DNA of 32,000 nucleotides from Candidatus Saccharimonadota bacterium (lineage in GTDB: Bacteria > Patescibacteriota > Saccharimonadia > Saccharimonadales > Saccharimonadaceae), in assembly GCA_023898645.1 (NCBI GenBank), contig CP060232.1, forward strand, positions 510,001 to 542,000, in the 5' to 3' direction. Numbering within the stretch: the first letter of the stretch is position 1; each line of letters starts with the position of its first letter. Both the position numbers and the translations under genes were made by a program. Of the stretch, positions 29,743 through 32,000 are shown piece by piece. A model generated the notes under the pieces. That model searched no databases and was not told the origin of the DNA. It worked only from the letters and a program-made list of their open reading frames with translations.

Positions 29743-31080
29743 ATGAGCACACTTTCATCGCTGCCGTATAAAGGCACACGTGATTATTACCCGGAAGACA
29801 AGCGGGTTCAGAACTACATATTTGCTACATGGCGTAAAGTCGTAGAGCGACACGGGTACCAGGAATACGGTGCGCCACTTATTGAACCGCTAGAAGTCTA
29901 CACTGCTAAGTCAGGAGATGAGTTAGCCAATGAGCAGACGTATAGCTTTACCGACAGAGGCGATCGAGTTGTTGCAATCCGACCAGAAATGACACCAAGC
30001 ATCAGCCGTATGGTTGCCGCTAGGCGGCAAGAAATGGCATATCCAGCTCGTTTGTATAGCATAGCTAATTTTATGCGTTATGAGCGTCCACAGCGTGGTC
30101 GTGACCGAGAATTTTGGCAGCTCAATGCTGATTTGTTTGGTGTTGAGGGTTCGCTTGCCGATGCTGAAATTATCGAACTGGCACACGAGATCATGCAAGA
30201 GTTTGGCGCTAAAGGCGACATGTATGTCATCCGGGTAAACAATCGTGACCTTATCGACCACATGATGTCTAGTTATCTTGGCCTTGATGCCGTTGGCTCG
30301 CAACTCATGATTAAATTATTTGATCGCAAGGAAAAGATCTCTAATGACGATTTTGCTCAGCAGGCAGCCGAAATTTTTGGCAACGAGCAAGTCGAGGAAG
30401 GTCTCGCAAAGTTACGGCAACTTGTTTCAGCTACGTCCATCGAAGACCTGCCGTCTGAATTGCACGAGACAGAATATGTCAAAGAGCTCGAAGACTTATT
30501 CGAACAGTTACAAAGTGCTGGCGTTAAGAATGTTAAATTCGACATCACACTTATGCGTGGACTAGATTATTACACCGGCATGGTGTTTGAGGTCTTTGAT
30601 CTACATCCGGACAATAATCGTTCGTTGTTTGGTGGAGGCCGTTATGACGGTCTAGTTGGCTTGTTTGGTGCAGAACCTATACCGACTGTCGGCTTTGCTC
30701 CTGGTCTGACGACGACAGAACTATTCCTGAGGTCACATGAACTTCTTCCTGTACTTGCTCCGACAACTGAAATAAATATCCTTGTTGTAGACGATAGTAT
30801 GTCTGCTGCGCTGGAAGCGGCTCGTAAATTGCGAGAAGAAGGCGTTAAGGTAGAAGTCGACATTAGTGGGCGTAAATTAGATAAGCAAATAAAGTCAGCG
30901 CTCAAAAAAGAAGTTCCTTACTTGATGTTTGTTGGATCTAACGAAGTCCGAGAAGGTATATATACGCTGAAAGATACTGCCACGACAACCGAAGAAAAAA
31001 TGAGCTTAGAACGAATTATTGGCAAGGTGAAAGATCATAGGCGCAATGGCGTAGATAGTGACGAACTGCCAAATATTTAA
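29743..31080 (+). CDS. hisS: Histidine--tRNA ligase
   Basis: 445 aa, class II aaRS. Motif 2 region FMRYERPQRGRDREFWQLN, HisRS-specific GGGRYDGL, and a C-terminal anticodon-binding domain. Confidence 0.95.
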   Translation: MSTLSSLPYKGTRDYYPEDKRVQNYIFATWRKVVERHGYQEYGAPLIEPLEVYTAKSGDELANEQTYSFTDRGDRVVAIRPEMTPSISRMVAARRQEMAYPARLYSIANFMRYERPQRGRDREFWQLNADLFGVEGSLADAEIIELAHEIMQEFGAKGDMYVIRVNNRDLIDHMMSSYLGLDAVGSQLMIKLFDRKEKISNDDFAQQAAEIFGNEQVEEGLAKLRQLVSATSIEDLPSELHETEYVKELEDLFEQLQSAGVKNVKFDITLMRGLDYYTGMVFEVFDLHPDNNRSLFGGGRYDGLVGLFGAEPIPTVGFAPGLTTTELFLRSHELLPVLAPTTEINILVVDDSMSAALEAARKLREEGVKVEVDISGRKLDKQIKSALKKEVPYLMFVGSNEVREGIYTLKDTATTTEEKMSLERIIGKVKDHRRNGVDSDELPNI

Positions 31081-31153
31081 CAGACTTATACAGCCAAATT
31101 TCATATCATAATAATTGTCCAATGAGTTCCAATTCCAAAGGAGGTCTCAGGAT

Positions 31154-31414
31154 GTGCTGAGGATAAATGCGACAAAAGTCGCAACTCTCGGTGTTCTCGG
31201 AGCCGTCCTGTTTACAGGTGGATCCATGGTTGCTGTTGCTACGGCGCCAGCAGCGAAGGCAGATTATTGTTCCAGTGGATGGGTGCCGACGACTACATGG
31301 TCGACATGCGACTATCCGATTGAACCTGATGGTAGTCACATACATTGCGACGCCGTGTTTGTATTTGGGTTCGGTGGTAGAAATTGCTATCGGGTATATC
31401 CGCCACCACCGTAG
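31154..31414 (+). CDS. Small secreted cysteine-containing peptide with a PPPP C-terminus (paralog 1)
   Basis: AAGGAGG (31138-31144) lies 9 nt before the GTG at 31154, in the same frame as track ORF 31115..31414. Signal peptide (M)LRINATKVATLGVLGAVLFTGGSMVAVATAPAAKA/DY. The predicted mature peptide is 50 aa with 4 Cys and ends in YPPPP. Confidence 0.6.
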   Translation: MLRINATKVATLGVLGAVLFTGGSMVAVATAPAAKADYCSSGWVPTTTWSTCDYPIEPDGSHIHCDAVFVFGFGGRNCYRVYPPPP

Positions 31415-31439
31415 CAGAAGGTCGTCTGTTCTGAGAGCA

Positions 31440-31487
31440 GCTCCGCGTTTACTTTCACCTGGAAGTGGGCGCGGAGCATTTCGTTTG
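31440..31487 (+). terminator. Weak candidate terminator after paralog 1
   Basis: GCTCCGCG (31440-31447) pairs with CGCGGAGC (31470-31477) around a 22-nt loop, followed by ATTTCGTTTG. Confidence 0.3.
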
Positions 31488-31580
31488 CAGCGACAGTGCT
31501 AGATATTTTACAGACCTGCATGACAGGACCGATTATCATAAAAATACCCAGAGGTACCATTCCAAAGGAGGTCCGAGGAA

Positions 31581-31916
31581 ATGTATAAGAAGTTTGCGGT
31601 AAAAGCTGCAACTCTGGGTGTTCTTGGAGCAGGTTTGCTTCTTGGCGGTACCGTCGTCACGGGAGCGTCGGCTCCCGAGGCGCATGCTAACGGATGCTTC
31701 GGATGGAATGGAATTTTCATTCATGCGCAGTGGTGTGGTGGCGGTCCATGGGGCGGATACCCTGGAATTGGGTATCCGGGAGGATGTGGTGGTTTCGGTG
31801 GGTGCTATCCGAATGTCGGATATCCACCACCTCCATTATTTCCCCCGCCACCTCCGCCACCACCACCGCCACCTCCTATTTGGGGACCTCCGGGTCCCGG
31901 TCCGTGTGGGTGCTAG
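31581..31916 (+). CDS. Small secreted Gly/Cys-rich peptide with a polyproline tail (paralog 2)
   Basis: AAGGAGG lies upstream of the ATG at 31581. Signal peptide MYKKFAVKAATLGVLGAGLLLGGTVVTGASAPEAHA/NG. The mature part has 6 Cys, GGxG/GYPG repeats, and the tail PPPPLF-P12-IWGPPGPGPCGC. Confidence 0.65.
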   Translation: MYKKFAVKAATLGVLGAGLLLGGTVVTGASAPEAHANGCFGWNGIFIHAQWCGGGPWGGYPGIGYPGGCGGFGGCYPNVGYPPPPLFPPPPPPPPPPPPIWGPPGPGPCGC

Positions 31917-31932
31917 CCGTCCAAGAACACAC

Positions 31933-31977
31933 TCCGTGTCCCCGCCGCACTTAAAGGCGGGGCACGGAGATTTTTTT
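31933..31977 (+). terminator. Strong rho-independent terminator after paralog 2
   Basis: CTCCGTGTCCCCGCC-GCACTTAAA-GGCGGGGCACGGAG (14-bp GC-rich stem with one bulge), followed by ATTTTTTT. Confidence 0.85.
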
Positions 31978-32000
31978 GCGAATCATCGCCACCTCTGTTA

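Follow-up and report, generated by a model that had tools for sequence, protein, structure and literature searches.

Tandem cassettes for two small cysteine-rich proteins with predicted signal peptides in a Saccharimonadota genome, one of them related to a mycobacterial and mycobacteriophage family

Between the housekeeping genes hisS and tig of a Candidatus Saccharimonadota genome lie two small open reading frames (ORFs), ORF1 and ORF2, that resemble each other up to the end of a predicted signal peptide and then part ways. What do they encode, and where did they come from? We addressed these questions in genome G000 (one contig of 1,134,346 bp, 46.7% GC), starting from a stretch of 32,000 nt (G000:C1:510001-542000; the window), and we use L labels for loci and G labels for genomes throughout. 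Each ORF is a separate, monocistronic plus-strand unit with its own strong ribosome-binding site (RBS) and hairpin terminator (Table 1). We think it rather likely that the two products are exported, disulfide-bonded mini-proteins, the ORF1 family stemming from a host-linked gene pool, with an extracellular role at the envelope interface between this epibiont and its host.

The initial annotation had described two paralogous expression/export cassettes with unrelated mature parts, and this description holds. Judged against 1000 shuffles, the 90 nt upstream of ORF1 and ORF2 are 74% identical (z 8.5) and the 108-nt signal-coding parts are 61% identical (z 7.1), values that 0 of 1000 shuffles equalled in either case. 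The upstream similarity extends beyond the alignment first reported: a second block (ATATTTAACAGAC versus ATATTTTACAGAC), located ~75-95 nt 5' of the start codons, reads ATATTT(A/T)ACAGAC and lies ~20 nt before TATCATAA. The 14-mer TTCCAAAGGAGGTC is identical in both cassettes and occurs nowhere else in the 1.13-Mb genome, and the peptide motif LG[VA]LG within the signal region is likewise found in this genome only at ORF1 and ORF2. The mature-coding parts rise barely above chance (z 2.2, 23 of 1000 shuffles equal), and the regions after the stop codons, taken as a whole, do not (z 0.8). Both terminators share a CTCCG(C/T)G...C(G/A)CGGAG stem core; the seven genomic sites with this core include these two terminators and one that follows a third cassette described below.

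We then asked how far the resemblance reaches into the mature proteins. With a hidden Markov model (HMM) of the ORF1 family, the ORF2 core did not outscore 2000 shuffled sequences, and hhalign, run profile against profile on the mature parts, returned a probability below 1%. In BLOSUM global and local alignments against shuffles, the sole standout was a weak GFGG(RN)CY..YPPPP block (z ~3.7), whose significance came from the YPPPP end and was gone once the prolines were removed. A 34.6-bit match of the ORF2 profile on ORF1 lies mostly in the signal peptide, and we rejected it as evidence of cargo homology. A multiple alignment can place four Cys of ORF1 and ORF2 in the same columns, and the first Cys pair stands at positions 3 and 16 in both mature chains; this is suggestive and is no test of homology. 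Because neither the HMM-versus-shuffle nor the profile-profile test gave support, we treat the two cargoes as not demonstrably homologous.

ORF1 is not an orphan: our searches place it as a divergent member of a described family that is common to mycobacteria and mycobacteriophages. ORF1 matches the Pfam family CDGP (PF24238) at 20.4 bits (E 8e-4), with a gathering threshold of 24.3; its orthologues score 18-21 bits, always over the same region, and a protein of the same genus (G017) reaches 26.0 bits. On these profile scores, ORF1 is a divergent CDGP homologue below the threshold and not a curated PF24238 member. A one-genome-per-species scan with the family alignment (tblastn) found three Saccharibacteria, three Mycobacterium and one Actinomycetota loci. 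Over the domain, identity to ORF1 is 38-67% for the Mycobacterium and Actinomycetota loci, with tblastn E values to Mycobacterium genomes of 1e-12 to 2e-14; one such homologue reads ...QCVGPNAVVFGHGGGRCDHPPGPDGSFVRCDTVYVFGIGGTNCYQVPPGTP, and three of four such proteins lie above the Pfam cut-off, at 27-29 bits. A family profile search of 5.8 billion proteins gave 85 relatives, mostly with precomputed PF24238 assignments, and the named organisms among them are all Mycobacterium or Mycolicibacterium, plus one "soil metagenome". A HMMER pass over 1.84 billion representatives yielded 82 clusters at E<=1e-3.

The family extends to phages. Nineteen Mycobacterium phage records were matched by ORF1 in tblastn, and phrog_17375 aligned with ORF1 residues 17-85 at 49.2 bits (E 1.1e-12). 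The phage homologues Saguaro gp55 (annotated "membrane protein") and Minerva gp110 carry a signal peptide and a true C-D-G-P and score above the CDGP cut-off. The phrog_17375 proteins share with ORF1 the signal peptide and the four-Cys layout; they differ in forming a clade of their own (97/98 support) and in their VRPVPxDVDPRGWVPA tail, whereas the ORF1 clade falls with chromosomal mycobacterial types. We found no family for ORF1 or ORF2 in NCBIfam, no Rfam match in the region, and no mention of the CDGP domain in a literature search.

Like ORF1, the CDGP proteins of Mycobacterium and Mycolicibacterium consist of a signal peptide and a ~50-residue domain with four invariant Cys, often followed by a Pro-rich tail, and the common core reads G-G-x-C-D ... 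P-D-G-S-x-x-x-C ... V-x-V-x-G-x-G-G-x-N-C-Y. ORF1 departs from them in having CDYP, in having SSGWVPTTTW instead of a Gly-rich first turn, and in residing in a Patescibacteria genome of 47% GC. Across the family alignment the four Cys are invariant, and the motif after the second Cys is C-D-Y-P in the ORF1 clade and C-D-G-P in the type II proteins of the genus (G004, G017). The CDGP family is uncharacterised, so no function can be transferred from it to ORF1.

We performed an AlphaFold2 structure prediction of the 50-residue mature ORF1 with an 86-sequence alignment. The prediction (mean predicted local distance difference test score (pLDDT) 89.9) has strands at residues 2-8, 11-17, 26-34 and 37-45, and these strand limits define two beta-hairpins in which residue 3 lies opposite 16 and residue 29 opposite 42, exactly the four invariant Cys. 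The hairpin register, rather than model coordinates, suggests that ORF1 probably forms disulfides C3-C16 and C29-C42, and mature ORF1 is thus modeled as a four-stranded beta-meander of two stapled hairpins followed by a short PPPP tail. A Foldseek search of the model against the PDB returned nothing below E 0.3 and only generic beta-meander sub-structures, and a sequence search of PDB chains with ORF1 returned only signal-peptide noise.

ORF2 belongs elsewhere. Searches of Pfam, NCBIfam, PHROGs and phages gave no match for it; a profile built from ORF2 and two relatives recovered a family of 10 clusters. The invariant or near-invariant features of these proteins are the A-x-A site, G-C-F-x-W-N-G-x-F-x-H-x-x-x-C, a G-x-G-Y within a Gly/Tyr/Pro-rich stretch of variable length, and a C-terminal C-G-C; the hairpin motif appears as GCFGWNGIFIHAxxC, GYPG repeats occur, and the Pro run varies across the family from ~4 to 14 residues. 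By its sequence ORF2 is the founding example of a small, lineage-restricted and undescribed family. The exact 111-aa product is absent from a collection of 15 billion proteins in which ORF1 of the same contig is present, and at the ORF2 orthologue in L038, the closest metagenomic relative, the gene caller of that record took another frame; ORF2 is therefore probably unannotated in public records. AlphaFold2 modeled only an N-terminal hairpin and, with confidence, the polyproline segment (mean pLDDT 51.6). According to a recent report, CXC motifs can mimic protein disulfide isomerase (bioRxiv 10.64898/2026.01.27.701630). By analogy, the terminal CGC of ORF2 could be redox-active or make intermolecular disulfides, which we offer as a lead only.

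The initial annotation had further proposed rapidly diverging cargo and suggested estimating substitution ratios for the signal and mature regions. We computed the ratio of nonsynonymous to synonymous substitution rates (omega) against L038, where the aligned locus has 86% mean column identity. Omega is 0.14 for whole ORF1 (signal 0.38, mature 0.05) and 0.08 for whole ORF2 (signal 0.02, mature 0.07); these ratios are rough because synonymous divergence is near saturation, though the synonymous excess is plain (50 synonymous and 23 nonsynonymous differences in ORF2). Overall, constraint on the mature parts equals or exceeds that on the signals. Every indel in either ORF preserves the frame, and all Cys are conserved, including all six in ORF2. 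ORF1 and ORF2 are thus real protein-coding genes under strong purifying selection, and neither cargo shows fast divergence from its orthologue.

How then did two different cargoes come to stand behind one type of leader? The pattern T[ATC]AC[AT]G[AT]C-N15-24-TAT[CTG]ATA occurs at three sites in G000, each 5' of a gene for a small secreted Cys protein. This module is conserved in the orthologous cassettes of relatives, and a sigma-70-like match overlaps it in cassette 1; we infer that it acts as a promoter. The third site lies outside the window, in a cassette at G000:C1:712449-712915 (+; locus L086), where the gene at 712521 has the module upstream, a similar signal peptide (MHKQFASIAAAIGIMGIGL...AHA), an unrelated 84-residue cargo with four Cys, and a CTCCGTG...CACGGAG terminator. 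A search of the genome with the 5' cassette and signal peptide, as the initial annotation had suggested, yielded exact or near-exact copies only for the two cassettes already known, and a looser search gave this more distant third. The third cargo matches 253 mycobacteriophage records (46% identity, E 4e-14) as well as phrog_2582 and phrog_17562, and within the genus it is found only in G018, G004 and G016.

We next compared the region 5' of tig from 20 genomes of the genus (loci L062-L081). The hisS-tig gap is empty (47-60 nt) in four of them (G012, G013, G021 and G001), and most of the others hold one to three small ORFs with signal peptides, Cys/Trp/Gly/Pro-rich and mostly unrelated to one another. 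These other island proteins had no match among PHROGs, and a C-terminal C-G-C recurs in otherwise dissimilar island products (ORF2 of G000, and proteins of G015, G014 and G007). In every contig examined, the ORF2-type gene lies 3' of an ORF1-type gene between hisS and tig; L048:3099-4324 has three cassettes in a row there, for an ORF1-type protein, a 117-aa Gly-rich CGCG protein and an ORF2-type protein. The idea of a conserved module with diverse cargo is thus borne out by the third cassette and the varied hisS-tig proteins, and what changes is its mode: cargo is replaced at the locus rather than diverging by fast point substitution.

In evolutionary pattern only, the cassettes recall conotoxins and legume NCR peptides, which also combine a conserved expression/export module with unrelated or hypervariable disulfide-rich cargo. 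The conotoxin and NCR superfamilies are eukaryotic, large and under positive selection in the mature part, whereas the cassettes number three per genome, each cargo is under purifying selection, and diversity arises by locus replacement. NCR peptides are treated in PMC7230169; our literature search found no description of small Cys-rich secreted proteins of Saccharibacteria.

We turned to the origin of the ORF1 family. It is present in 7 of 23 genomes of the genus. Sixty relatives yielded it in no further genus, and 400 more Patescibacteria genomes from 320 genera gave no match (E<=1e-4); among 151 genomes of the family around one Mycobacterium genome, at least 7 carry it, part of the candidates having been scored. 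In a tree built on 46 mature-domain columns, the Saccharibacteria proteins fall in three places. The hisS-tig-type ORF1 clade (100/99) is nested among chromosomal Mycobacterium types (group support 93/92), the proteins of G018 and G007 are nested in another mycobacterial group (97/95), and those of G004 and G017 in a third group (99/93) with Mycolicibacterium sequences. The G004 and G017 proteins (L006 and L007) are a second CDGP type, with a true C-D-G-P and a ...NNMxxQHIPxHIG tail, encoded at genomic sites other than hisS-tig. The phage CDGP proteins form their own clade, and a CDGP-family gene at L083:2462-2713, on a metagenomic contig of 63% GC, groups with it. The neighbors of this gene include many small ORFs, an HNH endonuclease and an AAA protein, and the setting looks phage-like.

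Since the ORF1 family is otherwise found in Mycobacterium, Mycolicibacterium and their phages, it most likely arose by exchange of genes in the pool of a host that carries mycolic acids. Given the far greater diversity of the family among mycobacteria, transfer from their pool to the epibiont appears the simpler reading. Contamination is excluded by the Saccharibacteria housekeeping flanks, seen in a closed genome and several independent assemblies, by the GC content of ORF1 (52%, versus 63-69% in the mycobacterial loci), and by the selection acting on the genes.

Both products read as substrates of the Sec pathway. ORF1 begins MLRINATK / VATLGVLGAVLFTGGSMVAVATAP / AAKA followed by DY, and ORF2 begins MYKKFAVK / AATLGVLGAGLLLGG... 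/ EAHA followed by NG, so that each has a basic n-region, a hydrophobic h-region and small residues at -3 and -1, as expected for Sec export and cleavage by signal peptidase I. The A-x-A ahead of the first Cys is kept in both families. We found no lipobox ([LVI][ASTVI][GAS]C) in either protein, the first Cys being preceded in K-A-D-Y-C (ORF1) and H-A-N-G-C (ORF2); no sortase signal (LPXTG, hydrophobic segment and basic tail), the C-termini being ...RVYPPPP and ...GPGPCGC; and no hydrophobic segment besides the signal peptide. This layout suggests Sec export and cleavage at residue 36/37, after which the products would be released or retained at the cell surface. Genes for VKOR (102 bits) and a DsbA-like Thioredoxin_4 protein (76 bits) are present in the genome, which makes disulfide formation outside the cytoplasm plausible. 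EF-P (71 bits) is encoded as well and would be available for the proline runs of the ORF products.

Together, these data suggest a model in which ORF1 and ORF2 would be transcribed independently and exported by the Sec pathway, signal peptidase I would cut each product after its AxA site, and the products would be oxidised outside the cell to disulfide-bonded mini-proteins. ORF2 would then consist of one stapled hairpin similar to those of ORF1, a disordered Gly/Tyr/Pro segment, a polyproline rod and a C-terminal Cys-Gly-Cys. The ORF1 family would have been acquired by exchange in the gene pool of a host with mycolic acids, and the products would act at the epibiont-host interface, for example by binding or masking an envelope component. 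As a best guess, and a conjecture, their target may be the envelope of an actinobacterial host with mycolic acids. The mycobacterial link gives the host-interaction idea of the initial annotation, which is plausible, a better motivation than before. Saccharibacteria are known to parasitise Gordonia and many other mycolata, and an intact mycolic-acid layer is needed (PMC11880426; PMC12592800); these cultured precedents belong to a genus other than the one studied here.

Several observations weigh against this proposal. The tree, which has only 46 columns, suggests multiple independent transfers, but an approximately unbiased (AU) test does not reject a single Saccharibacteria clade (p 0.19), so that any number or direction of transfers is tentative. 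ORF1 falls under the Pfam gathering threshold and has CDYP in place of the CDGP motif. G012, the closest genome by Tig, has an empty gap, so ORF1 and ORF2 are dispensable in some lineages. At L038:3272-3589, codon 8 of the ORF2 orthologue is an in-frame TGA where G000 has AAA; nothing else disrupts the frame, and all six Cys and the terminal CGC are kept, so either this copy was inactivated very recently or its assembly contains an error. Finally, the functional part of the proposal is conjecture, as the CDGP, phrog_17375 and ORF2 families have no known function or solved structure.

Some of the same evidence would fit proteins that serve the epibiont itself. Strong purifying selection is as in housekeeping-like proteins, the surrounding genes are housekeeping genes, and the composition of ORF1 is fully ameliorated to the genome. 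The products might on these grounds be small structural or wall-associated proteins of the epibiont's own envelope, with the Pro and Gly/Tyr stretches as spacers and the CGC end as a cross-link or redox handle, and with the mycobacterial likeness reflecting an old transfer and no present ecology; Pro-rich tails are common in the mycobacterial members too. However, such proteins would hardly be expected to come and go and be completely replaced among species of one genus, and that two of the three module cassettes carry cargo of the mycobacterial/phage pool is hardly a coincidence. We regard an own-envelope role as possible but rather unlikely.

The initial annotation had also named bacteriocin-like peptides among its readings. 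On this view the products would be Sec-dependent antimicrobials, lethal or inhibitory to the host or to competing bacteria. ORF1 and ORF2 are indeed small, Cys-stabilised, secreted and lineage-variable; they share with Sec-dependent class II bacteriocins the small size, the Sec signal peptide and the stabilisation by disulfides, and some Saccharibacteria lyse their hosts (PMC11880426). The locus itself lends no contextual support: as first noted, it has no modification enzyme, immunity gene or transporter, and its neighbors are hisS upstream and, past the window end, tig and then clpP. The same neighbors are found in relatives, whose syntenic loci also lack immunity, transporter and modification genes. 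Unlike class II bacteriocins, ORF1 and ORF2 have no immunity gene, and we found no bacteriocin family match in Pfam or NCBIfam, nor the locus features of a bacteriocin or of a ribosomally synthesised and post-translationally modified peptide. Mature ORF1 is not obviously cationic or amphipathic, and the mycobacterial family is single-copy with unremarkable neighbors. An antimicrobial role is accordingly improbable. That ORF2 lacks any function itself, being either a decaying ORF1 duplicate or low-complexity non-coding DNA, a reading to which its absence from the protein collection that holds ORF1, the premature TGA in L038 and the low AlphaFold2 confidence might point, we can scarcely credit, given its omega of 0.08, its 50 synonymous versus 23 nonsynonymous differences, frame-preserving indels and six conserved Cys, the hairpin and CGC end invariant in ten homologous clusters, and its own RBS and terminator.

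Returning to the interface proposal, a broader version of it is no more than tentative: the genus may draw secreted mini-proteins from the mycobacteria/phage pool, place them behind a common module, partly in a swap-prone tig island, and employ them on the surface of a host with mycolic acids, where they might bind or mask an envelope component much as a phage-encoded exclusion protein would. If this were true, one could tell from its cargo genes which host an uncultured epibiont lives on. Few environmental Saccharibacteria have a known host or known molecules for use at its surface, and the ORF1 family is a concrete, testable clue that this genus lives on mycolic-acid actinobacteria. For the CDGP and phrog_17375 families, the data add a fold predicted with confidence and a third kind of ecological setting, which may help to explain their role in mycobacteria and phages, and the common module and variable hisS-tig island offer a simple route to candidate interaction proteins in related genomes. 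Most notable here are the sharing of secreted mini-proteins among a Saccharibacteria genus, mycobacteria and mycobacteriophages, the common expression/export module, the variable hisS-tig island, and a small new ORF2 family with an unusual terminal Cys-Gly-Cys.

Table 1. Features of the hisS-tig island in G000 (window coordinates).
Feature	Position	Strand	Basis and details
hisS (histidyl-tRNA synthetase)	29743-31080	+	445-aa ORF; same gene in related contigs with Pfam tRNA-synt_His and HGTP_anticodon; upstream flank of the island
Promoter-like module, cassette 1	31078-31110	+	TAACAGAC, 18 nt, TATCATA; pattern search, ortholog conservation, overlapping sigma-70-like match
RBS of ORF1	31137-31146	+	AAAGGAGGTC; direct reading
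ORF1	31154-31414	+	GTG start, 86 aa; signal-coding 31154-31261, mature 31262-31411
Terminator 1, intrinsic	31440-31477	+	17-bp stem, CTCCGCG...CGCGGAG core; terminator scan; fold -34.2 kcal/mol, z -4.6
Promoter-like module, cassette 2	31508-31540	+	TTACAGAC, 18 nt, TATCATA; pattern search, ortholog conservation
RBS of ORF2	31565-31574	+	AAAGGAGGTC; direct reading
ORF2	31581-31916	+	ATG start, 111 aa; signal-coding 31581-31688, C-terminal CGC 31905-31913
12 consecutive Pro codons in ORF2	31842-31877	+	mixed CCN codons; direct reading
Terminator 2, intrinsic	31932-31977	+	CTCCGTG...CACGGAG stem and U run; fold -33.6 kcal/mol, z -5.9

Direct reading of the two genes agrees with their first description, including the AxA sites. 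The ORF1 product consists of the signal peptide MLRINATKVATLGVLGAVLFTGGSMVAVATAPAAKA, with the predicted cut after AKA, and the mature chain DYCSSGWVPTTTWSTCDYPIEPDGSHIHCDAVFVFGFGGRNCYRVYPPPP (50 aa, four Cys, YPPPP end). The ORF2 product consists of the signal peptide MYKKFAVKAATLGVLGAGLLLGGTVVTGASAPEAHA, with the predicted cut after AHA, and the mature chain NGCFGWNGIFIHAQWCGGGPWGGYPGIGYPGGCGGFGGCYPNVGYPPPPLFPPPPPPPPPPPPIWGPPGPGPCGC (75 aa, six Cys, a run of 12 Pro, CGC end), laid out as the GCFGWNGIFIHAQWC hairpin, a Gly/Tyr/Pro-rich stretch with a CGGFGGC loop, the polyproline run and the terminal CGC. We place the start of ORF1 at the GTG given in Table 1, because this codon lies 9 nt past GGAGG and the L038 ortholog has ATG at the same position; the TTG at 31115, with which the ORF list began ORF1, is less likely. 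A long spurious ORF in the tig frame, starting at GTG 31618, overlaps ORF2.

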